In this document: positions 2,969-19,991 of the stretch, one piece after another
How positions within the stretch are numbered: position 1 is the stretch's first letter
How the letters are laid out: each line of letters begins with the position of its first letter
Sequence record: NZ_CP120537.1
Source: a plasmid
Direction: 5' to 3' (one strand)
Length of the DNA: 64,000 nucleotides
Notes under the pieces: model-generated
What the model saw: the letters and a program-made list of their open reading frames with translations, nothing else
Told to the model about the DNA's origin: nothing
The model's database searches: none
Position numbers and translations under genes: made by a program

Positions 2969-3027
2969 AGTAGATGTGAATTATAAATTCACATGTTTGT
3001 TTTTTAAAATGGAGTAAAGTATACTTA

Positions 3028-3047
3028 TACTGTGTATTTATACAGTA
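3028..3047. promoter_or_regulatory. LexA (SOS) box TACTGTGTATTTATACAGTA.
   Basis: Matches CTGT-N8-ACAG, ~10 bp upstream of the umuD-like start. Confidence 0.7.
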
Positions 3048-3057: not shown

Positions 3058-3441
3058 ATGCAAATTCCTATTTTCGAGAGTCTAGTTGCCTGTGGTTTTC
3101 CCAGTCCCGCTCAAGACTACGTCGAACGTCGTTTATCGCTCGATGCTGAACTTATTCGCTATCCTGAAAGCACCTATTTTCTTCGTGCTTCAGGGGATTC
3201 GATGAAGGATGCGGGGATTTTTGACGGTGACTTATTAGTCGTTGAAAGTCACCTTACTGCCAGTCATGGGGAAATTGTAGTCGCCGAATACAATGGTGAA
3301 TTCACCTGTAAGTACCTGCAAATCACACCGACTAAAGCGCTTATTCCCGCTAACAGCCAATTTCCCTCTATCCCCATCAATGACGATACGGACGTGCAAA
3401 TTTTCGGTGTCGTTCGTTATGCCGTGCATACCTGTCGGTGA
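3058..3441 (+). CDS. umuD: UmuD/RumA/MucA-family SOS mutagenesis protein (LexA-like S24 peptidase).
   Basis: Has the '[11 protein letters not shown]' Ser-Lys dyad region; 127 aa; LexA box upstream; immediately followed by umuC. Confidence 0.85.
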
Positions 3442-3446
3442 AAGAT

Positions 3447-3672
3447 ATGTTTGCGCTCATCGATGTTAATTCCATGTACACCGCCTGTGAATCTGTCTTT
3501 AGGCCTGATTTAAAAGGAAAGCCAATTATTTGCCTTTCGAATAACGATGGGTGCGTCATTGCGCGTTCAGCTGAAGCGAAACCTTATATCCGCATGGGAG
3601 CGCCTTATTTTGAAATCAAACAGATAATCAAACAAAAGCAAGTAGTTGTATTTTCTTCAAATTATCCACTTA
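3447..3672 (+). pseudogene. umuC: 5' fragment of a umuC/rumB-like Y-family polymerase gene, truncated by an insertion.
   Basis: '[45 protein letters not shown]...FSSNYPL' matches the UmuC N-terminus, then diverges after ~3672 and stops. Confidence 0.8.
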
Positions 3673-4223
3673 CAGTTGGGAAATACTTTAGACATCACAT
3701 GTTGTAATGTTTCAGGTTGTATAAATTAGACGTCGAGATGAGGGGCGGTTACAATTTTTACTATTGGTTAAGAAATATCTTGAAAAAGTAGATGTATGAA
3801 CGCGTAACCCCCTGGGGGAAGGCTTAGCAGTGTGAATAACGGATGATTTAGGTGTTAATGTGATTGAACAAAATAGGTCGTTTCCAGATGACTTCGGCTT
3901 TGACTATTGTCTTATGTGGATTAGTACGGAGAAATATCCCTCATTTATAAGTAGGCCACACCCTGACAGTGGCGAGGTCATCCTAGTCTGGACTCAACCT
4001 GTCAAATTCAAATCACGATGCAATTAGGTCCGACAGGTTGCTCTAACTCACCTCTGCCCCTAAGTGTGTTGTGAGCGTTTAAATACATTTCACCAAAGCA
4101 CCATTTGACTTACTTTTTGTAATACCAGTAATTTGTCTACACAAACGGGTGACTTAACTTTCAGAATTTAAGACACAAGATGTTGTTCTTGGTATCATAA
4201 AAAAAATAAGAAAAAGGACTAAA

Positions 4224-5210
4224 TTGATGACTCAAATTAATAAAATGGCATTCAGCATAGGTAATGATGATATTGATTTATACCTTACGGCAATGAAGGC
4301 TAGTGAAATTTTGCAAGTTGCCACAGTTTCTCGAGTAGATGAGGATGCACAAAAGGGGTATCAGCGTCATTTGTCAGAACCACGAGCTAAGCTGATCGCG
4401 GAATATTTAGATTCAGGGAATCTAATCCCAGGGGCCGTAATTCTGAGTGCTCAAGAAAACTCAGTTATATCATTCAGTAATTCTGAATTATCGATGGAAC
4501 TGATTCCTAACTCTTTATTCGTTATTGATGGTCAGCATCGATTATATGGCGCTCATTTGGCAGAGCAAGATATTGAACTACCCGTGTGTATTTTTAAAGG
4601 TTTAGAACACACTAACGAAGTTCAATACTTTATAGATATAAACTCTAACCAGAAAGGCGTGCCTAAAACACTTCGTCTTGAGTTGTTAAAGTTTTTGGCT
4701 GAAGAGGACTCGCTCGATGCTGTTAGAGCCCGATTATTCGATGAGCTTGGAAATGAGCCTGATTCTCCCCTTTACGGAAAACTCAGTGCAACCTCTAGTT
4801 CTAGAGGTAAAATCTCGCATGTTCCATTTCAAGCAGCCTTAGACCCTATATTGAAAGTTCATCCATTATCTAGCTTGGCTTACGATGATAAAAAACGTCT
4901 ATTATCAAACTATACCTCCGCTGTACAAGGTGTTCTTGAAAGCACATTAGGGAGCAGCGAAAAGCTAACTACAGCAGCATATTTTGAAGCTGTATTTAGC
5001 ATCTTTGGACAAGTTTGCGGCCTTTCAATGATGTATTCAAAAAGCTACTCTGCCTCCGCACTAAAGGAAGTCTTAGAAGGTTTAAAACCATTCAACTTTG
5101 CTATTCATACAGGCACAAACCGTGATGCTATCAAGAAAATGAGTGATGAAATGCAAGAGCTAATTGAAATTCATAGCCACAAACTTGGCTCGGTTCAAGA
5201 TTTGTTTTAA
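4224..5210 (+). CDS. DGQHR-domain protein (DndB-like, ParB/Srx-fold), 328 aa.
   Basis: Motifs 'AQKGYQRHL' and 'VIDGQHRLYGAHLAE'; TTG start with an RBS. Confidence 0.75.
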   Translation: MMTQINKMAFSIGNDDIDLYLTAMKASEILQVATVSRVDEDAQKGYQRHLSEPRAKLIAEYLDSGNLIPGAVILSAQENSVISFSNSELSMELIPNSLFVIDGQHRLYGAHLAEQDIELPVCIFKGLEHTNEVQYFIDINSNQKGVPKTLRLELLKFLAEEDSLDAVRARLFDELGNEPDSPLYGKLSATSSSRGKISHVPFQAALDPILKVHPLSSLAYDDKKRLLSNYTSAVQGVLESTLGSSEKLTTAAYFEAVFSIFGQVCGLSMMYSKSYSASALKEVLEGLKPFNFAIHTGTNRDAIKKMSDEMQELIEIHSHKLGSVQDLF

Positions 5211-5212
5211 TC

Positions 5213-6097
5213 ATGATCAGTTCTGAAATATCAAAGGAAGTATTAGGCAGGCTTACTTCACTGGGATTCCAAAGAAGTGATAAGCCATCAAGTTATTCGA
5301 TGGCTAATAGCTTCAAAAAAGCCCTAGTTAGCTCTATTGTCGATATAGATGTTCAAGTGATCAACTCAAGCCGCCTTGAGGTTACCATGCCGAAGAGTGA
5401 CTATCTAAATGCAATTCTAACGGACTTTCACTTTGGAAAAGTTCGTGTAGAAAACCAAATTAAACACTTAACTGAACAGGTTAATGGTGATCTACAAGCT
5501 GCATGGTGTGTTGTTACAACTTATTATGCTTGCTACTTCATGTGCAATGAGATTTCAAGGATTGCAGGAAAATTCATAACCAACCTGACAGAAGAAGATC
5601 AAACCCGATTATTAAGTGCAGCTCAAGCAGGTACATCATCGATGTTTAACATTGATGGCCCAAGTAGCTTTGCTGTAATGGCTTCTCAAGGTAATAATTT
5701 TAATGAAATTAAACTAGATATCATTAAAACGGGAGCTAGACCTCATCAAGTCGCTTGGACAAATGTAAGTAGCCTAATCAATCCTATAAAAGTATCGGAT
5801 AAACACAATACAGCATGTCAACTGCTAAAGGATATTGTATCTTCATCTAATGACAGGTGGGCTTTACCTAGCGCAATTAGAAATGAGTGGAACTACAGTG
5901 CACCTAGTCTTTATGGAGATTCTGGTACTGATATTGGAAAGAATTTTTTATCCCTTATGAAGCAAGGGTCTTCAGTTAAGTGGGCTTCAAAAATAGGTAT
6001 TCAACCCCATGAAAATAACCGTGTTGCTGCGTTAGCATATGTATATGATTGCTTAAGTGGTGCGTATCAGTTGATCGATGGGCGCTTAAACAGTTGA
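5213..6097 (+). CDS. Hypothetical protein, 294 aa, partner of the DGQHR protein; no recognisable domain.
   Basis: Starts 3 nt after the DGQHR gene stop; the two are co-inserted. Confidence 0.7.
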   Translation: MISSEISKEVLGRLTSLGFQRSDKPSSYSMANSFKKALVSSIVDIDVQVINSSRLEVTMPKSDYLNAILTDFHFGKVRVENQIKHLTEQVNGDLQAAWCVVTTYYACYFMCNEISRIAGKFITNLTEEDQTRLLSAAQAGTSSMFNIDGPSSFAVMASQGNNFNEIKLDIIKTGARPHQVAWTNVSSLINPIKVSDKHNTACQLLKDIVSSSNDRWALPSAIRNEWNYSAPSLYGDSGTDIGKNFLSLMKQGSSVKWASKIGIQPHENNRVAALAYVYDCLSGAYQLIDGRLNS

Positions 6098-6501
6098 AGC
6101 AAACCAATATTGGCCATTGAGCGGTTCAGTAGTTTTGAATACCCTATCAGTGAGCACCATCATCAAAGCGAGTGAAATTTCCATACTTTATCTAATTCAT
6201 GTTTTTCTAAATTAGCTAAAATGCAACTCAGAAATGTCCAGAAGTGAGTTGTGTGGTGTCGAGTGGAGATTGTACGATTAAGCCCCTAAGTAATTAGTCC
6301 GTCAGTCTCCCTCGGTAATCAAATTAGTACATCTTAGCGATCAAATTGGTAAAAAATTAGACATGTAGATGAATGCCCACCTTAAAAAATAGACAGCGGG
6401 TTGGGCAGGGGGATTTTTCTGGTGTTAGACGCCAGCAACCCATGCGGCAGAATGGTTGCTCACTTACTCGCCTATTTTTAGCGGGAATTCTTAGCCAACT
6501 G

Positions 6502-7554
6502 TACCCGCTTTATGCCGATTTTAGTAACCGGTTTATGGCGGTAGTCGCTCAAATTGTGCCTCAAATTGAGGTTTACAGTATTGACGAATGTTTTTGTAAC
6601 CTGACAGGCATGGATACGTTGTATTCCTGGCATGAGCTTGGCCATAAATTAAAAGAGGATGTATTCCGGTGTGCTCACTTGCCTGTAGGAGTGGGGATTT
6701 CCAGTACCAAAACGCTAGCTAAACTCGCAAATCACGCCGCCAAAACATGGAAAAAAACAGGTGGAGTTGTCGATTTAAGTGCGCCCAGTCGTCAGAAAAA
6801 ACTCATGGCACTCGTGCCAGTAGGGGATGTTTGGGGAATTGGCCGTAAACTGGCAAAACGCTTAAATCAAAGTGGGATAGAAACTGCCTTGGATTTAAGT
6901 CGGCTGCCAACGTCCCAGGCGCGTAGACTGTATTCCGTCGTTTTAGAGCGAACGGTACGAGAGTTGAACGGGGAGTCCTGTCTTCAGCTGGAAGAAATCG
7001 CACCCGCCAAGCAACAAATTATTTGCTCTCGTTCGTTTGGCCATAAAGTCATGGACTACGAGTTAGTTCGCCAATCAGTGTGCGCATTTGCCGAACGTGC
7101 AGCAGAAAAACTACGTGAAGAAAAACAGTATTGTCGGTTAGTCACATTGTGGGTACAGAGTAGCCACTTTTCCCATCATGACCCGTACTATTATCGACAA
7201 GAAACCCAAGCCTTGGTTTATCCTACCCAAGATACGCGCGAGATTATTCAGGCGGCTGTCGCTTTGTTTGACCGACTTTGGCTTCCGAATGTGAAATACA
7301 GTAAAAGTGGGATATTGCTCAGTGAGTTTACCCCTTCAGGGCAAGTGCAACTGAATTTGTTTGAAAGTGGCCATAGTTTTCGTAAAAGTGGTGAGTTAAT
7401 GCGGACAATTGACCGGATTAATCGAGGAAAAGGCGCTATCTGGTTTGCAGGCCAGGGAATACAATCGCAATCCGCTTTATGGAAAATGAAGCAGCAATTT
7501 CTATCACCCCGCTGGACAACTCAATTGTCGGATATTCCCATCGTAAAATGCTAA
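6502..7554 (+). pseudogene. umuC: 3' portion of the umuC/rumB-like gene, downstream of the insertion.
   Basis: '...YADFSNRFMAVVAQIVPQIEVYSIDECFCNLTG...TKTLAKLANHAAK...' is collinear with the rest of UmuC. The ORF-track N-terminus (6373-6501) is insertion sequence read in frame. Confidence 0.8.
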
Positions 7555-7876
7555 TCATCAAGTGATGCTTTTTTAAACAGCTCTGATATTCATTCATTAA
7601 TCAAACCATTATCCTTGTTATTAACAGGGCTATTTCAAGTTATCCACTGATTTTGTGGATACGCCCATTTTGAGTTTTGGGGCAACGGCTTTATTTTGGC
7701 GTTGAGCCAGTATTAAGCCGAACGCCGGATTGACCCCATTTACACACAGTTGGCGCAGGTTCCCCGTACACTCTCGTTCTCGCGCCTGTTTGGGGCGCGC
7801 TCACTGGCTCGCCAAATGTGGAAAATGGGGACAACCGGCTTGAAAGGTCAACCGCTGCGCCTTTTACCGTTTTCAA

Positions 7877-8287
7877 CGTGGCGCAAAGGGCAGGGGTGCA
7901 GCTCCCTGCGGGACCGCCCCTGGTTCACTGCTTAGCTGCGCTAAGCGTTAATGGCGACTTGCCGTTCGCTTCTCTCGCTGCAAGTCGGGTGCTGCCATTT
8001 TCATCACCTGTGTGATTAATCTTTCATCGAGCCCCTCCGCTTGGCCTAAAACATAGCCTCATCTCGTCATACAGCAAGCGTAAAGTGCACTCCACCAAAA
8101 TTCTTGTCGCTGCGCTTTCCAACAATTTTGTCTCCGCCCTTGCTTCCTTCCTCGTCTCGGCTATGTACGGCCTTTGCAGCGGAGGAACTCGACGAAAGAA
8201 ATCATTAATACAAAGGAGGATTAAAAAATGTCATCACATCAAAACCTTGCAGCTCCAGAATCTAACGAAAGAAGGGTTAAAACCCCA
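7877..8287 (+). repeat. Copy A of a ~400-bp direct repeat with an internal palindrome GCAGCTCCC-TGC-GGGAGCTGC. Frpo/ssi-like single-strand promoter candidate.
   Basis: ~85-90% identical to 14547-14946; both sit immediately upstream of leading-region genes and extend into their first codons. Confidence 0.6.
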
Positions 8288-8518
8288 CTGACGCATGAGC
8301 AGAAAGCGGATTTATTGCATTACATTGCGCCATTAACACGGTTATTGGAGTTATTCGAGGGGGGTATTTCACCGGAGTTATACGACGAAGAAATCACGCT
8401 GCACAGTGATGCGTTCGATTCCAACAGTATTTTTATGAAAGACGGCTATCCGATTGGCTTTAGTGACAATTTAAACAACATGTTCTATCTGCGTCCTGAA
8501 CTGATTCAGGCTTCTTAG
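8228..8518 (+). CDS. Hypothetical leading-region protein, 96 aa.
   Basis: ORF immediately after repeat copy A; N-terminus 'M..QNLAA.ESNER' is shared with the ardB-like gene because of the repeat. Confidence 0.5.
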   Translation: MSSHQNLAAPESNERRVKTPLTHEQKADLLHYIAPLTRLLELFEGGISPELYDEEITLHSDAFDSNSIFMKDGYPIGFSDNLNNMFYLRPELIQAS

Positions 8519-8582
8519 GTACTAAGGGAGTTCATGAGCCTCCCTTAGCAAAGACACATTAAAAACAATAGAGGTATCAATT

Positions 8583-10583
8583 ATGTCTACATTAGAAACT
8601 ATCATTAACCCGAAACAACGTAAAGCGAAAAAAGGCACAAAATCCGCACAAGCCGACGCAATTTATCAGGCGTTGGACAGCATGGAAGCGCATGTATTGC
8701 CGTTATCGGTATTGGTACAGAGTGAACTCAATGTCCGTAAACGCCCAGTCGATGAAAAAGCCTTGTCAGAACTGGCAGACAGTATTCAAGCGGTCGGGGT
8801 GTTACAAAACTTGGTGGTTTACCCGATGGACAATGACGTCTACGGGGTTGCAGCGGGTCAACGTCGTTTACTGGCGTTACAACAATTGGTGACAAAAGGG
8901 CATTTAGCGTCGAGTTTCCCTGTGCCTGTCAAAGTGGTTTCAGAGTCCGATGCGCTGATTATTTCCCTGACGGAGAACAGCCAACGTGAAGCCATGCATC
9001 CAGCCGACCAACTTCATGCGTTTATCGAGCTACAAAAAACAGGAAAAAATGCGTCTGAAATCGGTGACTTATTAGGGTTTAGCACTCACCACGTGAAAAA
9101 ATGTCTGCGTTTAGCAAACATGGCGCCCGAGCTATTAGCCGAATTGGATGCGGACAATATCACCCTAGACCAGCTGCAAGCGTTAGCCGGAACCCCTGAC
9201 CATGACCGCCAAGTCATGGTGTGGAACAATGCAATAGGTTGGAAAAAAGAGCCACGTTACTTACGAGAAGCGGTCGAAGAAACCAAAACCCCTGTCGAAA
9301 ATAATCGATTGGTGAAGTTTGTTGGGTTGGATGCCTACGAGCAAGCAGGGGGAACCCTTGAAATTGACCTCTTTACCGAAGCCGGATTTATTGAAAATGC
9401 CCCATTATTAGAAAAATTAGCACTCGATAAACTCACTGTCTGTGCGGAACTGTTAGCGGATATTGAGGGTTGGCAGTTCGGTATTGCACGTTTAGAGCGT
9501 CCGAGTTTTTACGGTAATGACGGGGAAACCTTGTCTATTAGTCATGCACCCGAGGCGGTCATTTCCCCTGAATTTGCGGATTTACTGGCTGAATTGCGTG
9601 CTCGTGAAACAGATTTACGTCAGCAATCATGGGAAACGAATGATGAAAATGAACAAGCTGACCTTTGCCAAGCCGTGGCAGACTGCGAAAAGCAAATCGA
9701 AGACATTAAAGATCGTACCAAAAATCAGGCGTGGACAGCCGATGGAAAAGCAACAAAAGGCGTAGTGGTCTACCTTGACCGTGATGGAGAACCCTGTGTC
9801 ATCCGTGGCGTCATTGACTTAGCACAGCAAGAGTCACAGTGCAGTGAAGTGGAAAGCGAAACTGAAAGTGTGAGTGAGCAATCAACGACTCTAGTTGAGA
9901 CGGTTTCTACCTACAGCGCAGCGTTGTGCAAAAGTTTGTCCTCAGAGCGCACCTTAGCGGTTCAAGCGGCATTAACACAGCACCCGAACGTGGCACTGGC
10001 GATTTTGGTTCATGATGCGTGCATTCAGGTGTTTGGTTCAGGGTATGCCAAAACCGCGTTTAACATTAAGTTTTCATGTACTCAGGAGGAGTTACTCAAA
10101 AATGCCCCGACCGCCCAAGACAGCGAAGCATTGCAATTAATCAATACGCAATTTGAGTCATGGTCAGCCCGTTTCCCCGAAGGGTGGCAATCCGATTTTT
10201 CATGGTTGTTGTCATGGGAGCAAGCGGATTTAGTCGCATTACTGGCATTTTGTTCCGCGCAAACCCTAAGTGAAGTGAACCATCATGCTCCGCACGATAA
10301 CACGTTAGCTAAAGCCTTGCGTCCAATTGAACAGGTGATTGCTTTTGATTTTCGCCAGTGGTGGCAGCCAACCAAAGCCAACTTCTTTGGGCGTATAAGT
10401 AAAGACCAAATCAGCGATTGTTTAGCCGAGGCTGGCGCATCAGATAAAGCCCTTGAAGCCGTCAAAATGAAAAAAGGGGATGCCGCTGAGTTAGCTGAAA
10501 ATACCCTTAAAGAGTCGCATTGGTTGCCGAGCTGTTTTCTCGATGCAAACGCTGACTCTCACCACACCGATAACGCGCAATAA
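8583..10583 (+). CDS. Large ParB-like nuclease-domain protein, 666 aa.
   Basis: N-terminal '...VYGVAAGQRRLLALQQL...' ParB/Srx motif; this size class is typical of conjugative-plasmid leading regions. Confidence 0.7.
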   Translation: MSTLETIINPKQRKAKKGTKSAQADAIYQALDSMEAHVLPLSVLVQSELNVRKRPVDEKALSELADSIQAVGVLQNLVVYPMDNDVYGVAAGQRRLLALQQLVTKGHLASSFPVPVKVVSESDALIISLTENSQREAMHPADQLHAFIELQKTGKNASEIGDLLGFSTHHVKKCLRLANMAPELLAELDADNITLDQLQALAGTPDHDRQVMVWNNAIGWKKEPRYLREAVEETKTPVENNRLVKFVGLDAYEQAGGTLEIDLFTEAGFIENAPLLEKLALDKLTVCAELLADIEGWQFGIARLERPSFYGNDGETLSISHAPEAVISPEFADLLAELRARETDLRQQSWETNDENEQADLCQAVADCEKQIEDIKDRTKNQAWTADGKATKGVVVYLDRDGEPCVIRGVIDLAQQESQCSEVESETESVSEQSTTLVETVSTYSAALCKSLSSERTLAVQAALTQHPNVALAILVHDACIQVFGSGYAKTAFNIKFSCTQEELLKNAPTAQDSEALQLINTQFESWSARFPEGWQSDFSWLLSWEQADLVALLAFCSAQTLSEVNHHAPHDNTLAKALRPIEQVIAFDFRQWWQPTKANFFGRISKDQISDCLAEAGASDKALEAVKMKKGDAAELAENTLKESHWLPSCFLDANADSHHTDNAQ

Positions 10584-10624
10584 TCAACATGGAGACACTG
10601 CCCGAAAGGGCAGTGTGAATAATC

Positions 10625-11347
10625 ATGACAACTATTCCAAACCATTTAGCCCTTGTGCCTTTTAATGACCGTCAATATGCCGCTGCAAAAGCCATCCTTT
10701 TTGTCGAAGATAAAATGCAAAAAGGGCAATACCAAAAACGATTTCCCTATGCGAGCGCGTTAATTCGCATTTTTACGGGGAATAAAGGGTCAATAACCGC
10801 AAAAGATTTGCACTATACATTGGTGTTATCTTTCGATGATAAACGTGAAATGCCGTCAAAAAATCGCTATCTTGCCGCCCTTGATACGTTTATTCAGTCT
10901 CGTGGTTATATTTGTCCGTTGCCGTTATGTGATCATCATGTGCGAGATTTTTTTCCTGAGCTGGATTACCGCGACCGTGAACGGCAGGGGCGTAAAATTC
11001 AGTCTCAAGTCCAAGTTGTGAGCCGTGCCCGACAAAAAGCCCAAATAAAAGCGCAGCAACAGTATCAAAATCGATTAGCTCAAGCTGAAATTGAGTTAGC
11101 CTTTATTACCCCCAGTGAGTTTAAATCGTGGTACAACCGGTTTAATCATGATGGGATTGAAGAGTATGATTTGATTGAATTGCTTGTAAACTGGACGACG
11201 CGATTTAACAATTTAAACTTGCGAAAATACCTTGATTTTGCCCCGTTGTGGTCGGCGCTCTTGGATTTCAATGACGATATCGATACCCGATCATACGGTG
11301 AGCAATTACTGGATAATTATGCCATTCCCAATAAATTAATCGGTTAA
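10625..11347 (+). CDS. Hypothetical leading-region protein, 240 aa.
   Basis: ORF with RBS; no recognised motif. Confidence 0.55.
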   Translation: MTTIPNHLALVPFNDRQYAAAKAILFVEDKMQKGQYQKRFPYASALIRIFTGNKGSITAKDLHYTLVLSFDDKREMPSKNRYLAALDTFIQSRGYICPLPLCDHHVRDFFPELDYRDRERQGRKIQSQVQVVSRARQKAQIKAQQQYQNRLAQAEIELAFITPSEFKSWYNRFNHDGIEEYDLIELLVNWTTRFNNLNLRKYLDFAPLWSALLDFNDDIDTRSYGEQLLDNYAIPNKLIG

Positions 11348-11351
11348 AAGG

Positions 11352-11627
11352 GTGTTGACGATGAATGAATGGAATGTGGTTTTACTCGAAACTGAAGACA
11401 GTTTGGTGCTAATGATGCGCGGTGAGCACACAAAAGAAACGGTCGTTAATTCAGCAATTGCCGCGAATGAAATTTCACAGAGTGACCGCGAAACGTGGTT
11501 AGCCTGTGAAGATATCAACGTGGGCTATTACAAGGCGGTGCCTAGAGAAGGGTATGCCACCTATTATTATCCTGTCAGTCAGGACGTTAAAGGGGCGTTT
11601 TTAGCAACCAGTCTTGTGCTATTTTAA
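11352..11627 (+). CDS. Hypothetical protein, 91 aa.
   Basis: ORF, tightly spaced after the previous gene. Confidence 0.45.
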   Translation: MLTMNEWNVVLLETEDSLVLMMRGEHTKETVVNSAIAANEISQSDRETWLACEDINVGYYKAVPREGYATYYYPVSQDVKGAFLATSLVLF

Positions 11628-11876
11628 GGTTGAGAGCCAATTAGTGAGTTGATGATGCAATTAAAAAGCAAACAAACACAATGTGTTCATTGTTATTACA
11701 ATGGCACCTTTTTATCTGCTGCATAATACTTCGGGTCAGGTGGGTGTTAATGATGCCTTTAATGGCGAGATGACGGATAACAGTACACAGTTGGATGGTA
11801 TGCGATTAACCTCCCTGAAAACTGTCTATTGTGGGGAGTGTCATCGACCTTTATGAACCGTTGAAGAACGAAAGCA

Positions 11877-11912
11877 ATAAAGGGCTGTTCGGGTAAACCC
11901 GAACAGCCCTTT
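11877..11912 (+). terminator. Stem-loop AAGGGCTGTTCGGG-TAAA-CCCGAACAGCCCTT followed by a T-rich tract.
   Basis: Perfect 14-bp stem, read directly. Confidence 0.5.
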
Positions 11913-12565
11913 ATCTCTCAAAAAACGAGGATAACCCGCTAGTCTTTGCGTTTGAGATCCGTGGGGTTTGTTAAAAAAAATGAGATTTTACTGAGGTTGC
12001 GATTGCGTATCGTTATTTTTATTTGTAAAAACAATGAGATGAAGATTTTTGACAAAAATTTAAATCAAAATTCATTTATCAAAAAAATACAATAACCCCT
12101 TATGGGTTCCTACGGCAGCTCGACTTCTTCGAGCTGTCGCCTACACTTCAACGCCATTCGTAAAACGAATGGGTTTCCGCAGAGCCGCAAGCGTCTCTGT
12201 CCTTCGGATAGCAAGCGAAACCTAACTGCACGGCATTTCGTGCTTCGCACGGCCGTTAAAGACGCCACGCGTTGCGTGTCGGCCGATTGCCTCCTCACCC
12301 GACGGTTATTTTCTTACTATCAGCCCATTCGCTAGGGCTATTGATTACGCCCTTAAGCTCAAGAACTTGCAAGGGTTCGCTTCGCCGCGTTGCGCCCCTG
12401 CAAAACCTTTCCCTTGAGGGCTTCATCGCCCTTGCCGCGACTGAACTGACAGTAAGATGAATTAACACTTTCAAAGAGAACTACGAGGCCATCGGTAAAC
12501 GTCAACACCGCCACGCCAAAACCTCCAGAAAGATGAGTTAAAAGCCAAAAACAAGGAGTATCAAC

Positions 12566-12817
12566 ATGAATTATCAAATTTTTATTGCGGAAACCCATAA
12601 GAAAAATGTGACAGGGCAAACGGATGACGTTTATCACTTCAATTCCATTGCTGAATTCTTCACTTTTCTGAAAAAAACGAAATTCGCGGAAAAAATGAAC
12701 ATGAATTACCAATATGCCTTAACCGATGGAACAAAAAACACCGATTTAACTTACCGCGAAATTGAAAGCGCCAACCACCTTAAACCGTTTAAAAAACAGG
12801 TTCGCCAATACCGTTAA
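12566..12817 (+). CDS. Hypothetical protein, 83 aa.
   Basis: ORF with RBS 'AAGGAG'. Confidence 0.45.
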   Translation: MNYQIFIAETHKKNVTGQTDDVYHFNSIAEFFTFLKKTKFAEKMNMNYQYALTDGTKNTDLTYREIESANHLKPFKKQVRQYR

Positions 12818-12913
12818 AGCGACCTATTGAATAGCGCGAAATCGTAACGCGCTATTCAATATCGAGCCAGTTCGATATTGAACCAACCACTAAATCATAA
12901 AAGGAGAAACAGT

Positions 12914-13252
12914 ATGTATCACGCATTAGAGCAGTACGAAACAGACAGTTACCAAGAAACCCAAAGCGCGGAAATGATGTATTGGATAGGACGTGAACAA
13001 GCGGCTAAAACTGCCCCGACAGAAATCACCTTAATGCAATTTATGGATGCATTATCCGTTATGCCCCCGTTGGATTGGCAAGGCAATAACAATACTGAGT
13101 CCTTTAAATTGCAAGAGATGTTTTTGGGGAACGTGACTGACATTTTTGTCAAAGTGGACGGGCGCTATTTCACGTTTAGGGATGTATCAACGTTATCTCA
13201 CGCGCAAATTATTTCGCGTGTGCGTTGTGCTGGATTACTAGCGCAACAATGA
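12914..13252 (+). CDS. Hypothetical protein; internal Met start of the 124-aa ORF-track entry 12878-13252.
   Basis: RBS 'AAGGAGAAACAGT' before ATG 12914. Confidence 0.45.
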   Translation: MYHALEQYETDSYQETQSAEMMYWIGREQAAKTAPTEITLMQFMDALSVMPPLDWQGNNNTESFKLQEMFLGNVTDIFVKVDGRYFTFRDVSTLSHAQIISRVRCAGLLAQQ

Positions 13253-13285
13253 AAAAAGCAGGCTTGCGCCTGCTTAATCCGTGCC

Positions 13286-13585
13286 TTGAGCGACTTTAGC
13301 GTAGGAACTCAAGGTATTCACCCAATCAAAGGAGTAAATCCGATGAATACAAATATCATGGCATACGCTGCCAACCCTGTAAAGCCCCAAATGCCCGTTG
13401 CGTCAAAACGTCGGGTCATGCGTCACGATATCGCGATTAGTGATATTGAGCCTACCTATCGGGCAATGGCGCGACATATCGACAAACAGCTTAAACGCAA
13501 ACAGCCCGTTCGCATCCCTGCAATGAATAACCATTGTTTGGGGCAACTCTTGCGCTGTTTGGAACTGCGTAAATCGTGGATTTAA
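13286..13585 (+). CDS. Hypothetical protein; start is more likely the internal Met at ~13343.
   Basis: ORF only. Confidence 0.4.
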   Translation: MSDFSVGTQGIHPIKGVNPMNTNIMAYAANPVKPQMPVASKRRVMRHDIAISDIEPTYRAMARHIDKQLKRKQPVRIPAMNNHCLGQLLRCLELRKSWI

Positions 13586-13629
13586 GTTAACTCACTGCCC
13601 CTTTTCAGGGGCAGTTTTGGAGCGTCGAT

Positions 13630-14436
13630 ATGTCACAATTGAGTTTTTTTGATGTAGATTTAAGCCAACCTGTAAAAACCCCCAGTCCTATCATTTCAGG
13701 CTCACCCAATAAGATAGACACAAAGACAGACAAAACAGTCGAAAAAGCAACCCTAACAACTAGCACCAAGTCAAAGCGAGATTTTCACACCGAGTTTATT
13801 CAATTGTTTAATCAAACGGCACGTTATCACAGTCGCTTAGACGTGTTTCGGGATTTTATTCATGTTGCCGCGATTTCATTAGAAAACAGCGTGAAACAGT
13901 GTCCTGAGTTGGAGCAAACTTACTTTAACGTGATTGCGCGTTATGAAAGAGCCGATTTAGATGTGTTCGCCAAATTAATGGCAATTTGTGTTAATGCCTT
14001 AGACCAGCAAGCCACCGATTTTTTAGGGGCGGTGTTTATGTCCCTTGAGTTAGGCGAAGGGGCATGGGGGCAATTTTTTACCCCATTTCATATCAGCCAG
14101 CTAATGGCAAATCTTATCATCGGTGATTGCAGCACTATAATTGAAAAAAATGGCTATATCAGCGTGTCCGAGCCAACGTGCGGGGCGGGCGGAATGGTGA
14201 TTGCCTGTGCCAATTCTGTGTTACAACAAGGTTACAACCCACAAATGCAAATGATCGCAGTGTGTACCGATATTGATGAGGTTGCCGCCCGAATGTGCTA
14301 CGTCCAATTGGCATTATTGGGAATCCCTGCCATTGTGAATATTGGTAACAGTTTAACGCTGGACGTTCGTCAAACGCTATATACCCCGATGTTAATGTTA
14401 AATTCATTTCGCTTTAAATCCTTTTTAACAGCCTAA
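13630..14436 (+). CDS. SAM-dependent DNA methyltransferase (N6-adenine type), orphan.
   Basis: Motif 'VSEPTCGAGGMVIACAN' resembles the HsdM / gamma-class FxGxG motif; no adjacent restriction gene. Confidence 0.65.
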   Translation: MSQLSFFDVDLSQPVKTPSPIISGSPNKIDTKTDKTVEKATLTTSTKSKRDFHTEFIQLFNQTARYHSRLDVFRDFIHVAAISLENSVKQCPELEQTYFNVIARYERADLDVFAKLMAICVNALDQQATDFLGAVFMSLELGEGAWGQFFTPFHISQLMANLIIGDCSTIIEKNGYISVSEPTCGAGGMVIACANSVLQQGYNPQMQMIAVCTDIDEVAARMCYVQLALLGIPAIVNIGNSLTLDVRQTLYTPMLMLNSFRFKSFLTA

Positions 14437-14546
14437 TTCACGTTATTTCAAGGGGATTTATTCCCCTTTTTTGCGCATCGGCTTAATCCTGGCATCGAGC
14501 CAGGCTCAATCCGACAACGTCAACCCCTGCGCCTTTTTACGCTGAC

Positions 14547-14946
14547 GCGTGGCGCAAAGGACAGGGATGCAAGCTCCCTGCGGGAGCTGCCCCTGATAAA
14601 CCGCTTAACGTTGTTAAGCTCAAAGGACGCCTTGCGGTTCGATTCTCTCGCCGCAAGTCGGGTTGTGTCATTTTCAGCTACTGTGTTGTTAATCTTTCGC
14701 CAAGCCCCTCCGCTCGGGCTTAAACATAGACTCAACTCGTCATCCAGCAAGCGTAAAGTGCACTCCAGCAAAATTCTTGTCGCTGCGCTTTCCAACAATT
14801 TTGCTTCCGCCCTTGCTTCCTTCCTCGTTTCGACTATGTACGGCCTTTGCAGCGAAGGAACTCAACGAAAGAAATCATTAACCCAAAGGAGACACTAAAA
14901 TGACTCAACAACAAAACCTTGCAGCTCAAGAATCTAACGAAAGAAA
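14547..14946 (+). repeat. Copy B of the ~400-bp Frpo/ssi-like direct repeat.
   Basis: Aligned by eye to 7877-8287; internal palindrome conserved. Confidence 0.6.
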
Positions 14947-15379
14947 TGGAAAAGACCAAATCGTTATCACGACAATTGAGGTGAAGAATGCTCAAGCTCG
15001 TTTAAAATTTTTACCTTCAAAATTAGGGCGGTACTGTATTGCCTTTGAAAATGCAATCTATAACTGGATGACTCGGAACGCCGTAGCCTATAACGGCGGT
15101 TATTGGGATTTTTATACGTTGTCGAATGGCGGTTTTTATCTGCAACCGACAAAAGGCTATATGCTCACTTCACCGAATGGATTTATGGACGATGTAAGTG
15201 CTCAAGAAGCAGGAATTATTGTCACTTTAATGATGTTAAGTCATTTTTCATTTGTGACCTATGAAAAAGAGCATCACGAAGATTGTGAGCGTATTTCTGC
15301 TTATTTTCATCAATTACGGGATTTTATTTTCACATTATCCCCTGAATCACAAACCAAAATATTAAACGCCATTGATTAA
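14900..15379 (+). CDS. ardB: ArdB/KlcA-family antirestriction protein (YfjX-like).
   Basis: 'AYNGGYWDFYTLSNGGFYLQP...SAQEAGIIVTLMMLSH...YFHQLRDFIFTLSPE...ILNAID' closely parallels E. coli YfjX and the KlcA family. Confidence 0.75.
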   Translation: MTQQQNLAAQESNERNGKDQIVITTIEVKNAQARLKFLPSKLGRYCIAFENAIYNWMTRNAVAYNGGYWDFYTLSNGGFYLQPTKGYMLTSPNGFMDDVSAQEAGIIVTLMMLSHFSFVTYEKEHHEDCERISAYFHQLRDFIFTLSPESQTKILNAID

Positions 15380-15449
15380 GTCTATCACGCGCAAGTCTTA
15401 GGCTTGCGCTTAATTGAACACCATCAATCAATAAATCAGAAAAAGGTAA

Positions 15450-16322
15450 ATGAATATGGAACAGCAAACATTATTATCGGTTGGTCAAGTGGTTTACACT
15501 AATTTATATAATCTCGGCAAGGGGGTTATTGTTAATATTCATGGCGAGCAAAAACCACAAAGTATAAAGAATATGTATAATGTTATGGTCACAGGGGGCA
15601 ATGCGGAATTTGATATCGTATTCTTTAATGGGAATAAATCAAATCGTTTACCGGAAAGTATTTTCCACGGCGTACAATGGAAAATTGAAAATGAAACGGT
15701 TGAACAAGAAACCATTAAATCATTAATTGAAAAAGCTGAGGCACATGAACAAGCAGAAAAAGCCGAAGAAGAACGAAAGATAAATGAATTTAAACAAGGT
15801 GTCGAATTCCAAAAAAACAACACAGAATATTCACACTTAACACAGATAACCTCTAATTCAGATAAGAAAGTCAAAATAGTCGGTAAAAATATCCGTGCTG
15901 AGTTAAAAAAACATTTTCCAAAAACAAAATTTTCAGTACGTAAACAGTATTACAGTTCTTATCATGTAAATTGGACAGATGGTCCGACAGTGGAGGAAGT
16001 CGAATCTATAATCAATAAATATGAAACATCGCGTTTTGATAGTTATACCGATTATCATTATAGTGAAACATCACCTTTTAACGTAGTTTATGGTGGTGCT
16101 GATTATGTTTTTACACATCGGGATTACAGTGATGAAATAATCGCATTGGCTATCAAATCATTGATTGATAAATATGGCGAGTCTTATGAGTTTGATACCG
16201 CGCTAATGACGGTTGAAAATTATCATCAAGGAATATTATACAAAATAGGACGAGAACAAATTATTGGGAATGATGGGATAGGTGGAGAAATTGGTCGAGT
16301 ATTAAGAAAAAACAGTTATTAA
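15450..16322 (+). CDS. Hypothetical AT-rich leading-region protein, 290 aa.
   Basis: ORF; low GC relative to neighbours. Confidence 0.55.
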   Translation: MNMEQQTLLSVGQVVYTNLYNLGKGVIVNIHGEQKPQSIKNMYNVMVTGGNAEFDIVFFNGNKSNRLPESIFHGVQWKIENETVEQETIKSLIEKAEAHEQAEKAEEERKINEFKQGVEFQKNNTEYSHLTQITSNSDKKVKIVGKNIRAELKKHFPKTKFSVRKQYYSSYHVNWTDGPTVEEVESIINKYETSRFDSYTDYHYSETSPFNVVYGGADYVFTHRDYSDEIIALAIKSLIDKYGESYEFDTALMTVENYHQGILYKIGREQIIGNDGIGGEIGRVLRKNSY

Positions 16323-16429
16323 AGAAAGCGCGCCTAAAGGCGCGTTTCTCGTTTTAATACTAAACCACATGCATTACTTAATATTAAACGTGATTATAGC
16401 GTTAAAAATAGAAAGTAAAAGGAGTAAGT

Positions 16430-16876
16430 TTAGTTATTTTTTTTAATGTTAAGATAAATGTGATAGACCTCAAGCGCATATTGATTTCTTTTTTGTTCTT
16501 GAGCCTCGGATTTTTTTAACCCTGCATTATAAGCCCCCACACCTTTCCAAATATCCCCTTGTATGCGAATAAATTTCGCGAGATAAAATGCACCCGTATA
16601 AATATTCATGCATGGGTCTTGCCTTAAATGATTTTCTGTAATGCCATACTGGGCTAATTCATTAAAATTTTGTGAATGAATTTGCATTAATCCAATCGCG
16701 TATCGTGTCGATGATGCTTGATTAATTGCATTCGGTTGGAATGAACTTTCACGAAAGGCAACCGCGCGTAATAAATCAGGGTCAATTTGATAATCTTTTC
16801 CTGCTTTATCATAGCAATCAAACGAAAATGAAAAAGGTGAGAAAATTAACGCAATGAGAATACAGATCATTCGCAT
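16430..16876 (-). CDS. Lytic transglycosylase (SLT domain), like F orf169 / R1 gene 19.
   Basis: 'AVAFRESSFQPNAINQ...AIGLMQI...' SLT catalytic region; signal peptide; adjacent to oriT. Confidence 0.8.
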   Translation of the reverse strand: MRMICILIALIFSPFSFSFDCYDKAGKDYQIDPDLLRAVAFRESSFQPNAINQASSTRYAIGLMQIHSQNFNELAQYGITENHLRQDPCMNIYTGAFYLAKFIRIQGDIWKGVGAYNAGLKKSEAQEQKRNQYALEVYHIYLNIKKNN

Positions 16877-16989
16877 ATAAACCCCATAAAATAATAAATA
16901 CGCTTAACTCAGAATCGCCCATTTTAATTAAAAAATAAAGCACCATTTAAATGCAAGCCAAAAGAAAGGAGGAGCAATAAATACGCTCC

Positions 16990-17035
16990 TCTGAAAGAAA
17001 GACATCACACCCCACGCAAAATTTCATTTTGCAAG
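16990..17035 (-). other. oriT: oriT core. On the minus strand: GCAAAAT-GAA-ATTTTGC hairpin followed by TTTTGCGTGGGGTGT|GATG, an F-like nic motif. Predicted nick between plus-strand positions ~17006/17007.
   Basis: Near-identity to the F-plasmid nic region TTTGCGTGGGGTGT|GGTG; lies between the lytic transglycosylase and traM. Confidence 0.55.
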
Positions 17036-17104
17036 AATTTATCATTAAATCAGGGTGTTAATTAAAAATAAAGCGGTGAAAATTTTAAAAATCTTAGTGT
17101 TAAG

Positions 17105-17320
17105 CCCATTACTAGCCCACCAATAGCGTCTATATGTGGGCTAAATAGATGCACTCTGTGTGTATTGCTAATAATATCAAATATATACAATTTTTCACTA
17201 AAATTAGTGGGCTAATGGTGGTCTATTGTAATATACTGTTTATATGTCATTTATTTTTCATGATTGTATTTGGTGGGCTATTTGTGGGCTGTGTGTTAAT
17301 TGACCGTAGCCCACAAATAG
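17105..17320. repeat. Array of at least 6 GTGGGCTA / TAGCCCAC motifs in direct and inverted orientation upstream of traM. Candidate TraM (sbm-like) binding sites.
   Basis: Motifs counted by eye at ~17113, 17135, 17207, 17270, 17282, 17308. Confidence 0.45.
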
Positions 17321-17349
17321 AGGCTAGTAAAAACTAAGGAAATAAAAGA

Positions 17350-17727
17350 ATGCCACGTCAACATATATATATGAAGCAAAAAACGTTAGATGGAATTCGT
17401 AATATTGTGGATAAACGAAAAAACGATGGTGCTGATGCAAACATTTCCAGTGTTGGCTCTGAATTACTGGATATTGGATTGCGCGTTGTTGAGAACTTAG
17501 AAAAAGACAAAGAAGGGGATGATGGTTTATCTTTAGAGGAGCGTTATAAAAAACAATTATTGGAAGAGGTGACTAAATCACGTCAATGTATTCAAATTTT
17601 ATTCAAAATGATGTTTGATTTAGAAGAAATAAAAAATGATAATCGATATAACTATCGAGAATATATTGAAGATTTTAAAAACAGAACTCAATCAATATTA
17701 GATGAGTATTTTCCTGATAGCAATTAA
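17350..17727 (+). CDS. traM: TraM (relaxosome accessory protein).
   Basis: 125 aa; '...IRNIVDKRKNDGADANISSVGSELLDIGLRV...' parallels the F TraM N-terminal RHH-like DNA-binding region; position is oriT-proximal. Confidence 0.8.
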   Translation: MPRQHIYMKQKTLDGIRNIVDKRKNDGADANISSVGSELLDIGLRVVENLEKDKEGDDGLSLEERYKKQLLEEVTKSRQCIQILFKMMFDLEEIKNDNRYNYREYIEDFKNRTQSILDEYFPDSN

Positions 17728-17859
17728 AAAATGGTAATGTAAGAGCGAATATAAGGATAACTTAAAATAGCTTATTTACATTACGTGAATCTAATCAAAT
17801 AGCGAGTAAAATAGGATATATTTTTATTAAAATAAAAATATATTAATTGATTTAATTAT

Positions 17860-17960
17860 TACTAACATGGTATATTTAGAATAAATAGAATCACCCAATA
17901 ATCGAGTTACAGCTCGATTATTGGGCTAATCAAATAACCCCACAGTTAAGGACGGTTAAA
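17860..17960 (-). ncRNA. finP: Candidate FinP-like antisense RNA locus in the traJ leader. Perfect 13-bp stem CCCAATAATCGAG-TTACAG-CTCGATTATTGGG at ~17894-17925.
   Basis: A strong stem-loop immediately upstream of the traJ RBS; finO is present elsewhere in the window. Confidence 0.3.
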
Positions 17961-18712
17961 TGACTACCTTCAATAATATTGATCCGCAATGTGGATCTCA
18001 AGTGATTTTTGATATCATTTATCAATTTAATGATAAACGTCTCTTTTATATCCGTAATAGCCAACATGATATCACTCATGTCAGTGATGATTTCTGTCAG
18101 ATGGTTAATATTCCATCAAAATCACCTCTTCTTTTGAAAAACTTTCCCAAATTAAAAAAATTAGAGGCTTTGGAGAAACAAGTGATCACTAACAAAAACA
18201 GCAAATCACTTTTTTTCGCCTATAAGCTTAAATCTGAATTTTATTATCTTTTTTATGTTCATATTAAATGTATATCATTTAATGATAAAAACTACACAAT
18301 AACAACTTTCAGCAAGTTTAGTGATTTCTTTAGCCATGAAACTATTTTTAACACAATTAATATTGCTGATGGTTTTTTTGTTGATGATGGTTTCCCAATT
18401 GACAATTATAATAATATTAATCCTGTTTCTTTAACTGTGAATAATGAAACAAAGAAAGAAGAGAGAATATCTTGGCATATTATTTGGCTTTTTTTAACAG
18501 GAAAGTCTATTAGATGGATTGCCGAGTTTAGCCATTTAAATAAAAAACAAGTTGAAAACTCATTAAATAAATATTACACCAATTCAGGAGTTTTAAATCA
18601 AAAAAATTTGCGAGCAATAGCCAGGAAATATGGATGGTGTAATTATATTGATAAAAATACGGTAGAACTTATTAATTTTCGCTTAAGTGAAGATGGAAAG
18701 ATTTTAATATAG
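17960..18712 (+). CDS. traJ: TraJ-like positive regulator (positional call), 250 aa, AT-rich.
   Basis: Sits between traM and traY, as in F; TraJ proteins are highly divergent, so the call is by position only. Confidence 0.45.
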   Translation: MTTFNNIDPQCGSQVIFDIIYQFNDKRLFYIRNSQHDITHVSDDFCQMVNIPSKSPLLLKNFPKLKKLEALEKQVITNKNSKSLFFAYKLKSEFYYLFYVHIKCISFNDKNYTITTFSKFSDFFSHETIFNTINIADGFFVDDGFPIDNYNNINPVSLTVNNETKKEERISWHIIWLFLTGKSIRWIAEFSHLNKKQVENSLNKYYTNSGVLNQKNLRAIARKYGWCNYIDKNTVELINFRLSEDGKILI

Positions 18713-18810
18713 AAAAAGTTAGATTTAAATATTTTATTTTTAATTATTTATGGTTTTATATGCTTTTTAGGGGTGTTTTTGTGAATATCATCACAATCAC
18801 CCCCCTTTAT

Positions 18811-18828
18811 TTGGGACAGCTGTCCCAA
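18811..18828. promoter_or_regulatory. Perfect 18-bp palindrome TTGGGACAGCTGTCCCAA upstream of traY. Candidate activator-binding site at a PY-like promoter.
   Basis: Read directly; ~45 bp upstream of the traY start. Confidence 0.35.
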
Positions 18829-18871
18829 GACATTGATTTTTATTTGTGTAATATAAATTCAGTCCAAAGGG

Positions 18872-19066
18872 ATGGGTAAGGATATGAATGCAAACAAACA
18901 TAAAAAGATTAGTGTTGATATTAGTTTAGTAACAGAAGAATGGTTAGTTAAAGCAATTGAATTATCTGGAAGAACTAAAAAAGAAGAAATTAGGATACGT
19001 CTTGCTCATAGCTTAAAAAACATTGAAAAAATAGATGATAATTATTGGGAAATAATCTCAGCCTAA
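18872..19066 (+). CDS. traY: TraY-like ribbon-helix-helix protein, 64 aa (positional call).
   Basis: 'ISVDISLVTEEWLVKAIELSG' beta-strand-then-helix pattern; lies between traJ and traA. Confidence 0.45.
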   Translation: MGKDMNANKHKKISVDISLVTEEWLVKAIELSGRTKKEEIRIRLAHSLKNIEKIDDNYWEIISA

Positions 19067-19144
19067 TTTTTTTTGATTATATAAACTGTTAAATAAAAAG
19101 ACAGCGGGAAGACTTTGCCATTAAAAATGGATTTGTCGGGCTGG

Positions 19145-19156
19145 GGCGGTAGCGCA
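19145..19156 (+). promoter_or_regulatory. ops-like element GGCGGTAGCGCA, in the traY-traA intergenic region.
   Basis: The 8-nt core GGCGGTAG is exact; 10 of 12 positions match consensus GGCGGTAGCGTG; an RfaH paralog is encoded downstream in the same operon. Confidence 0.5.
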
Positions 19157-19298
19157 TTTAAATTAAATGAATTTTTATCTCGCTTTATTTCTTTGAGATT
19201 AACGAAGGAATAAAGCGAGCTAAAAGCTCAGAAGTTATTCGAAACTCTTTAGGAGTTTATTTTGAAAATACTGAAATATCTATTAACAAGGAAAACGT

Positions 19299-19667: not shown

Positions 19668-19682
19668 TGGATTAGGAGTTGG

Positions 19683-19991
19683 ATGATGGAAAACGAACGT
19701 GCCCAGCGATTCATTTTCCCTCAGACGTTAACCGAGCAAGGCGGTATTCTTCCATTACCCAATGATGAAACCGCCGTTCTACTAGGCCCCATGTTATGGG
19801 GCTTTTATGACGGACATTACATGACTGGCCTTGTGGTTGGTACGTTGCTCTGGTATGCCCTGAGGTACTTCAAAAAAGGGCGGGGAAGTCAGTGGTTACT
19901 CAATGCCTGTTATTGGTACTTACCCGCTTACTGCTTTAAAAGCATTTATAAATCTCTCCCTGACTCTGCGTTCAGACTTTATTTAAAATAG
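19683..19991 (+). CDS. traL: TraL.
   Basis: ~100-aa membrane protein in the F-order position. Confidence 0.65.
   Translation: MMENERAQRFIFPQTLTEQGGILPLPNDETAVLLGPMLWGFYDGHYMTGLVVGTLLWYALRYFKKGRGSQWLLNACYWYLPAYCFKSIYKSLPDSAFRLYLK

Follow-up and report, generated by a model that had tools for sequence, protein, structure and literature searches.

The mobile elements closest to the DNA described here are integrative elements of the strand-biased circularizing type (SEs), as represented by SE-6283 (Tn6283) and SE-6945 of Vibrio alfacsensis (PMC5991714, PMC9345347, PMC10214605). Two tyrosine recombinases, IntA and IntB, aided by Tfp and Srap, are reported to copy an SE, with strand bias and with no empty site left behind, into a circle that takes along the 6 bp to the left of the left terminal repeat (motif C). 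The circle integrates into a preferred target, whose central 6 bp are then found on the left, at attL, and the carried 6 bp on the right, at attR (PMC9345347, PMC10214605). SE-6283 and SE-6945 have these four core genes, imperfect terminal inverted repeats of 13–19 bp (motifs C and C′), a right end that finishes in GTA and a narrow choice of targets, namely bcp for SE-6283 and yjjNt and insJ for SE-6945. In a text search of the three papers, neither umuC nor rumB was mentioned. We analysed a 64,000-nt stretch of a Providencia plasmid (hereafter the window; sequence record NZ_CP120537.1), in which an insert of 2,833 bp at 3671–6503, TACAGTTGG...CCAACTGTA, splits the polymerase gene umuC. Its boundaries come from empty sites and from identical ends in five other umuC/rumB contexts, and we consider this insert to be the core-deleted relic of an SE at its lineage's preferred umuC site, a reading to which we assign a probability of roughly 0.88.

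The umuDC locus defines the insertion precisely (all features given here and below lie on the + strand). As the earlier note on this DNA had stated, umuD (3058–3441; Peptidase_S24, E = 1e-28) and the upstream LexA (SOS) box of the umuDC promoter are intact; the former is named umuD in identical plasmid records, and the latter, TACTGTGTATTTATACAGTA at 3028–3047, is a perfect TACTG-N10-CAGTA that overlaps a promoter-like site at 3003–3031. The 5′ part of umuC (3447–3670, the attL flank) encodes residues 1–69 of the IMS family and is ~91.5% identical to an empty allele (L001). The 3′ part (6510–7554, the attR flank) encodes IMS, IMS_HHH, IMS_C and DUF4113 domains and is collinear with empty alleles. 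The proposed split of umuC was confirmed when we aligned the locus to uninterrupted alleles, as that note had suggested: umuC is present without the insert in nine related Providencia plasmids, which define the empty site, and removal in silico of 3671–6509 restores an intact open reading frame (ORF) of 422 aa. The break thus lies at 3671/6510, and the end of the Leu codon, formerly placed at 3672, moves to 3671. The rebuilt umuDC equals that of P. alcalifaciens in length, with 109 mismatches over 1,658 nt and no frameshift or stop, and the two umuC halves are therefore collinear and undegraded. The insertion inactivates umuC and so the plasmid-borne polymerase V. The window coincides, coordinate for coordinate, with the initial 64 kb of plasmid pPROV046-NR1 of Providencia sp. 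PROV046 (NZ_CP120543.1), and an identical 4.6-kb region is present in five other Providencia plasmids.

The termini of the insert resemble those of SEs. The 8-bp terminal inverted repeats noticed earlier (ACAGTTGG / CCAACTGT) are present, although the perfect repeat is longer, 9 bp (TACAGTTGG / CCAACTGTA), and extends imperfectly to 18 nt. The left repeat, the equivalent of motif C, spans 3671–3688 (78% complementary, first 9 nt perfect), and the right repeat, the equivalent of motif C′, spans 6486–6503 and ends ...GTA; imperfect repeats of this kind are a defining feature of SEs. By our own arithmetic, a 9-bp inverted match placed exactly at boundaries set independently by gene alignment has a chance probability of ~4e-6. 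Inside the termini we delimited a left arm of 313 bp (3671–3983), with a promoter-like site at 3727–3755, and a right arm of 331 bp (6173–6503). Each arm has one copy of a 19-nt direct repeat, AAATTAGACGTCGAGATGA / AAATTAGACATGTAGATGA (3723–3741 and 6354–6372), and the hexamer TTAGAC occurs four times in the arms in a single orientation (3688, 3726, 6357 and 6425; 0.28 expected). Judging from the sequence, these repeats and hexamers may be candidate arm-type recombinase binding sites. An Rfam scan of 3400–6700 returned no RNA family and only a chance snoRNA match (E = 0.98); nothing points to the arms encoding a structural or guide RNA.

To our search with the insert alone, only the ends responded: the first 312 bp (98–99% identical) and the last 329 bp (99%) recur in plasmids of Alteromonas, Vibrio gangliei and Shewanella and in Proteus chromosomes, and each match adjoins a split umuC or rumB. 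The arms are ~99% (98–100%) identical to the ends of elements of 10–40 kb that occupy the same codon position of diverged umuC/rumB genes in hosts including Alteromonas (pKD02), V. gangliei (pVgang), Shewanella, Proteus, an integrative and conjugative element (ICE) of E. coli and 13 genomes. These 13 further copies came from a genome scan with the left terminus (11 named isolates and two metagenome-derived); 12 lie in genes of the rumB type and one in a umuC of the Y-E-L type, and we take the named genera to be marine. The left arm is 99.4% identical over 312 bp to ten of the 13 and 98.1% identical to the remaining three, and it differs from the Neptuniibacter copy (L013) at two positions. The right arm is 99.1% identical to the Alteromonas, Vibrio, Proteus and E. 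coli copies, found in ICE or plasmid records, and differs from the Alteromonas copy (L002) at three positions. The search for further copies of the ends, which the earlier note had proposed, was thus productive, and its view of umuC/rumB as a recurrent insertion site was upheld.

Codon position and orientation are the same in at least six diverged umuC/rumB genes, as in SEs, which use few selected targets, and intA is co-directional with umuDC in every copy seen. Comparison of the sequences places the target of the lineage at Tyr-x-Leu codons of umuC/rumB, with attB reading ...TA/YNNNYT/N.... An SE lineage that recognizes these codons suggests why umuC/rumB is an insertion hotspot. We found no copy of the element in a phage collection and nothing in a scan of viral contigs; a plasmid of Shewanella putrefaciens gave a weak 78-bp match without SE context, and the IntB-like genes seen in plasmids of Klebsiella and E. 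coli are those of a different SE, located outside umuC.

Consistent with SE integration, the two flanks of the insert carry different 6-mers. The flanking direct repeat that had been described (TATCCACTT / TACCCGCTT, both encoding Y-P-L) is real, and there is one register in which the termini form a perfect inverted repeat: the element then spans 3671–6503, preceded at attL by TCCACT (3665–3670, the last 6 bp of the umuC 5′ part), which is the target's own central 6-mer or fingerprint, and followed by the footprint CCCGCT (6504–6509). Both 6-mers are native to Providencia umuC. Among the nine empty alleles, the central 6-mer is TCCGCT in three and TCCCTT in three, and TCCATT, CCCGCT and TCCACT occur once each, CCCGCT in pR33-1 and TCCACT in pPROV224-1. 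We compared the junctions in four contexts, written here with slashes at the edges of the three target codons. The window has TAT CCA CTT/ACAG on the left and CTG/TAC CCG CTT on the right; Alteromonas, TAC GAG CTT/ACAG and CTG/TAC GAG CTT; V. gangliei, TAC GCT CTT/ACAG and CTG/TAT GCG CTC; and Proteus, TAT GCG CTT/ACAG (shared with Shewanella) and CTG/TAC GCG CTG. The repeats in these contexts have 0, 2, 2 or 3 mismatches in nine, and all seven mismatches fall at third codon positions, as expected when donor and target are allelic forms of one coding sequence. In V. gangliei the footprint is TGCGCT, the attL 6-mer of rumB sites, as expected if this copy came from an ICE. At least positions 1–4 of the right 6-mer are derived from the donor, as these comparisons show. 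The target 6 bp beside motif C and the donor 6 bp beside motif C′ correspond to the arrangement in SE-6283 and SE-6945, with the length of 6 bp taken by analogy. The two 6-mers record the umuC allele type of the last donor, and the same logic could be used to trace elements through plasmids and ICEs.

The earlier note had explained the imperfect repeat as a decayed target-site duplication or a product of recombination. A related possibility is that the insert is a non-autonomous element of a DDE transposase (resembling a miniature inverted-repeat transposable element, MITE, or a Tn3-derived inverted-repeat miniature element, TIME), with short inverted repeats and a mutated 9-bp target-site duplication; the short terminal repeat, the apparent 9-bp direct repeat and the lack of an intact recombinase in the insert would all agree with it. 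Intact target sites argue otherwise. Since the plasmid collection held no intact rumB of the ICE type, we scanned metagenomes instead, and four intact rumB sites read AAC TAT GCG CTG TAT GCA, AACTATGCGCTGTATGCA, whereas every occupied left flank reads GCGCTT/ACAG. Because intact rumB has CTG where occupied sites have CTT, the T before ACAG is element DNA. The outer T and the TA of the apparent 9-bp repeat are thus the element's own terminal bases, and a true 9-bp duplication is refuted because the repeat includes them; the same difference rejects a 9-bp footprint. Nor do the mismatches reflect age, because the arms differ from copies in distant hosts, which we take to be marine, at only two and three positions; mismatches that coexist with arms ~99% identical exclude mutation after insertion. 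In full-length relatives, moreover, the recombination genes of the element are tyrosine recombinases only, the insertion sequences (IS) and Tn3-family genes being nested passengers. We therefore regard a DDE-type origin as extremely improbable and attribute the imperfection of the repeat to the SE mechanism.

The 6-mers could differ for another reason. An already occupied umuC segment might have been imported by homologous recombination from another Providencia plasmid, with a crossover between alleles beside the insert. Many umuC alleles, 73–94% identical, exist on Providencia plasmids that belong to the same replicon cluster, and both 6-mers occur among them; we found none similar enough for a mosaic to be tested. 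Such an import would require the crossover to fall no more than a few bases from the element, and it would leave the identity of the element unchanged, pushing SE integration merely one step back. The same pattern of mismatches in the V. gangliei and rumB contexts is directly explained by the SE rule and matches a donor 6-mer. We consider the import unlikely, and SE integration at umuC the better account of the flanks.

Full-length relatives of the insert carry the SE core. In well-preserved copies, intA, tfp, intB and srap lie in this order just inside the left arm and encode proteins of 469, 822, 729 and 178 aa. IntA matches the Pfam family Phage_integrase (7.8e-15), and IntB matches the same family weakly (0.002). 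In SEs, IntA and IntB have the catalytic residues R-H-R-Y, which Tfp lacks; candidate motifs picked out by eye in the umuC/rumB lineage are HDLR...GHES...KY in IntA and HQTRR in IntB. For Srap, the match to DUF6262 stays below threshold (E = 4.5e-05; 24 bits, with the cut-off at 29 bits). Compared with the proteins of SE-6283 (from pSEA1), IntA is 30% identical (E = 5e-38), Tfp 33% (E = 7e-97), IntB 33% (E = 1e-127) and Srap 46% over 65 aa (E = 5e-11), and the gene order is the same. The lineage thus differs from SE-6283 in having proteins only 30–46% identical to its own, in its termini (TACAGTTGG...) and in its umuC/rumB Tyr-x-Leu target, which is also distinct from the targets of SE-6945. 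Since SE-6283 and SE-6945 themselves share only ~20–27% identity (PMC9345347), the umuC/rumB lineage sits well inside the SE family.

By contrast, the window copy has lost the whole core. With full-length IntA as query, tblastn matched 3860–3983, at 95% identity over residues 1–41 and nothing further; these first 41 codons of the tyrosine recombinase open an ORF (3860–4027) that then leaves the intA frame. The insert had been described as free of any transposase or recombinase, which is correct in functional terms but overlooks this remnant. Immediately after it, at 3984–4046, comes a 63-bp segment that is 100% identical to the Neptuniibacter (L013, 6865–6927) and Alteromonas (L002, 5494–5556) copies. 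In full-length copies this segment lies 27 bp downstream of srap, whose ORF, including its stop, ends at 6837 in Neptuniibacter. Because intA codon 41 directly joins the post-srap segment, we conclude that ~6.5 kb was deleted, the loss starting at intA codon 42 and ending 27 bp beyond srap; the scar is the joint 3983/3984, GGTCATCC/TAGTCTGG, at which we found no microhomology. No other SE core gene was detected by tblastn in the window, and the annotation of the plasmid's final 15 kb lists none. As copies with the same arms carry all four core genes, the window copy is a deletion derivative and not an autonomous member, and the non-autonomy stated in the earlier note was borne out.

Decay of this kind is common in the lineage. 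Six of the 13 genome copies have an intA that is shortened or frameshifted (cuts at about residue 193 in four genomes and at residue 56 in one, frameshifts at residue 36 in two), and in three more tfp or intB is cut or interrupted by an IS: tfp is cut in two of the genome copies and IS-interrupted in L019, where intB is also cut. A rumB of Pseudoalteromonas holds a remnant of 3.1 kb, and apparently intact cores are rare, being found in one Neptuniibacter metagenome-assembled genome and one partial view. 'Broken' SEs are also known from the literature: those beside tmexCD-toprJ (preprint 10.1101/2022.09.22.508988) and SE-PaeBT2436 (PMC11695899) have likewise lost core genes and kept an end and cargo, and tmexCD-toprJ modules have repeatedly been found in the umuC regions of plasmids (PMC13491359). 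The SE-PaeBT2436 lineage differs in its termini (TAAGAGTAAG... / ...GAAGAACAG), and the window copy keeps both ends around an internal deletion. The insert is a new, decayed member of a described element class, of which broken copies were already known, and its main interest lies in the umuC/rumB targeting rule, in the connection with the resistance cluster found in rumB of SXT/R391-type ICEs and in an unexplored cargo.

Several points weigh against the SE reading of the window copy. All four defining core genes are missing from it, which makes it a derivative and not a working member. Its deleted form occupies one insertion site only, with the same junctions in all six plasmids, and none of the nine empty alleles is closer than ~94% to either flank. 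A later homologous exchange between umuC alleles is possible. The 6-bp register follows from analogy and from the symmetry of the repeats, the TA of the Tyr codon being invariant, and the sequences prove only positions 1–4; the exact length of the footprint and the recombination chemistry would be those of described SEs. With these reservations, we suggest that the window copy integrated into the umuC of the plasmid at attB TA/TCCACT/T, and that its donor was another Providencia-type umuC with the 6-mer CCCGCT, as the footprint suggests. The core loss of 6.5 kb, which the sequence itself displays, could have come before or after this last move; no second site of the deleted form was found. The window copy would no longer be self-mobile and would at best rely for movement on a related SE present in its host cell.

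This last prospect can be taken further. If the arms suffice in cis, the insert would be a working 'mini-SE' that a related SE in the same cell moves, and CCCGCT would record a hop made after the deletion. The arms are essentially intact, with two and three differences, and contain repeated motifs that could serve as recombinase sites (the 19-nt repeat and the four copies of TTAGAC), and a sister SE lineage occupies umuC in plasmids of Providencia, Proteus and Morganella. The deleted form is nevertheless known from a single insertion site, neither the window nor the annotated last 15 kb of the plasmid shows a helper, and decay has also affected the sister copies found in Morganellaceae. Circle formation was reported to require an intA-tfp-intB operon that is intact and lies at the motif C end (PMC10214605); it may or may not be possible for another copy to supply it. 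We hold continued mobility of this kind to be possible but doubtful, and retain the reading of an SE relic. With four mobility genes gone and both arms and the cargo kept, the insert shows how far an SE can decay and offers a natural substrate for tests of which sequences suffice in cis for SE recombination.

The sister lineage occupies the same umuC codon in MOBH plasmids of Providencia, Proteus and Morganella, including P. stuartii pLarge (NZ_CP095444, ~3100–11400) and L008 (~14400–20195). Its copies retain srap and an IntB fragment that is 94% identical; the right arm matches at 76% overall and perfectly over its last 22 bp, and CGTACT is the footprint. The cargo is usp-sulP-MFS-patatin, and the copies seen are truncated by multidrug-resistance regions. 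From the presence of this lineage in plasmids of Morganellaceae, it follows that SEs of this group have circulated in that family.

The same arms frame a well-known resistance region. In the E. coli chromosome NZ_AP022095 (~5160–20331), they flank sul2-strAB-floR-ISCR2 and a Tn3-family tnpA within the rumB of an ICE that has mobI and int and adjoins yjjG. We take this site to be the prfC attachment region, and the layout to be that of SXT/R391 variable region III. The left arm of the cluster keeps a truncated intA, and the footprint is CGCGCT, as is also the case in L005 (10031–20331), L009 and L022. Judged by sequence comparison, the rumB resistance cluster of the examined SXT/R391-type ICE is thus framed by decayed copies of the same SE lineage. 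In the SXT papers searched, the rumB insertion is attributed to ISCR2 elements (PMC2791158) or to 'a typical transposon', and a text search of SE and SXT/R391 papers did not find the link to SEs made. Compared with variable region III (Wozniak 2009, PMC2791158), the window copy has the same arms at the same codon and, like the ICE cluster, a truncated intA, and it differs in cargo, which in the ICE comprises sul2-strAB-floR-ISCR2 with Tn3-family transposase genes.

Other element families were compared with the insert. The integron-like elements (ILEs) and genomic islands with three integrases (GInts) that enter rulB of pWW0 (Rhodes 2014, PMC4542609) resemble the umuC/rumB lineage in having several tyrosine recombinases, a left module that is conserved and a right side that varies, and in their site-specific, single-orientation insertion into a homologue of umuC; in one published ILE, as in the sister lineage, sulP cargo lies beside the right end. 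They differ in their site, which is the GAT codon of an SN(S/N)DGC motif and lies ~40 codons upstream of the Tyr-x-Leu site, and in their 3-bp repeat; in the pWW0 record, the published insertion point at 6488 falls in the SNSDGC motif of rulB. The ILE left end, CTGAGGG, is absent from the insert, whose left end is TACAGTTGG, and the insert therefore has neither the site nor the end of an ILE or GInt. SE genes are reported to lack BLAST similarity to GInt genes (PMC10214605). Within one polymerase gene, two recombinase-driven element families thus each have a conserved motif of their own as target. As far as the description in PMC10214605 goes, Tn554 of Staphylococcus has in common with SEs two tyrosine recombinases, a small TnpC/Srap-like protein, site specificity and 6 bp carried from the previous site, and differs in its Firmicutes host, its target and the lack of a Tfp gene. 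Tn7-like ends were rejected, as the termini are the wrong way round and tns genes are absent, and we found no dif-like site, attC or reverse transcriptase that would indicate a Xer/dif module, an integron cassette or a group II intron.

Whereas SE-6283 and SE-6945 carry resistance genes, the window copy carries a two-gene cargo. It occupies a variable slot (4047–6172) between the same backbone edges that hold Tn3-family and resistance DNA in relatives. The left edge, after GCTCTAA (4046), is common to the Neptuniibacter copy, and the 63-bp segment is also present in the Alteromonas copy; the right edge, before TGAAATTTCC (6173), is common to the Alteromonas, V. gangliei, Proteus and Pseudoalteromonas copies. 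Within the slot, a cassette at 4079–6117 recurs as an 88% identical copy in an unrelated contig (L032). The first gene (4227–5210) encodes a DGQHR-domain protein of 327 aa that resembles DndB and DpdB (TIGR03187, E = 7e-33; Pfam DndB, 1.8e-10; PADLOC DpdB, 1e-20). It has the DGQHR domain in common with DndB/DpdB of the phosphorothioation and 7-deazaguanine DNA-modification systems, but its scores stay far below the equivalog cut-offs (69.5 against 300 for DpdB, and 77 against 450 for a dnd-associated model). The cargo has two genes only and lacks the dnd and dpd partners (dndACDE, or dpdA and dpdC-K) that with a DGQHR protein would make up a Dnd or Dpd system; its conserved second protein belongs to no named family.

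That second gene (5213–6097) encodes a partner of 294 aa with a HEPN-like helical domain, modelled confidently by AlphaFold2 (mean predicted local distance difference test score 90). We found no family for it in Pfam, NCBIfam or PADLOC; a Pfam search with all 17 family members, a profile search of PDB sequences and a Foldseek comparison of the model with the PDB were likewise empty. Only 19 relatives (clusters) occur among 5.8 billion protein sequences. An invariant stretch, R223-N-E-W-N-Y228, resembles the HEPN motif Rx4-6H, with Tyr replacing His. In all six full contexts that we read, including a Massilia genome (38% identity), the partner gene directly follows a DndB-family gene, and in three of the six the pair stands beside SMODS/SLATT, DUF4062 or zeta-toxin genes, the last with an integrase. 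The SMODS/SLATT pair is presumably of the type found in cyclic-oligonucleotide-based anti-phage signalling systems (CBASS). Genomic context and predicted fold together suggest that the DGQHR and HEPN-like proteins form a candidate defence module, probably directed against phage. Being rare and conserved from Providencia to Massilia, the pair is a candidate for a new defence system. A DEAD/ResIII helicase gene is another neighbour seen near the pair.

The cargo is co-oriented with umuDC and lies downstream of its LexA-controlled promoter, and a simple scan revealed no terminator-like site on the + strand between the LexA box and the cargo. SOS-induced read-through from the umuDC promoter into the cargo, as the earlier note proposed, is plausible from this layout, although it would not be needed, as the cargo has a promoter-like site of its own with a TG extension at 4170–4198, just before the DGQHR gene. 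In intact copies, read-through into the recombinase operon would by speculation be equally possible. A fuller scenario would combine a functional mini-SE, moved by resident SEs, with a two-gene abortive-infection cargo (the DGQHR protein as sensor and the HEPN-like protein as effector) boosted by SOS read-through; we consider this combination improbable.

Two further features were observed. A sequence resembling a LexA box, TACTTTTTGTAATACCAGTA, with one mismatch (CTT for CTG), lies at 4111–4130, 40 bp upstream of the DGQHR gene's promoter-like site. A window should contain ~1.2 sites with a single mismatch by expectation, and this one may be due to chance. Outside the window, the same plasmid, which thus has at least one further gene of defence type, carries an annotated abortive-infection gene of the AbiH family (NZ_CP120543.1, 73635–74528).

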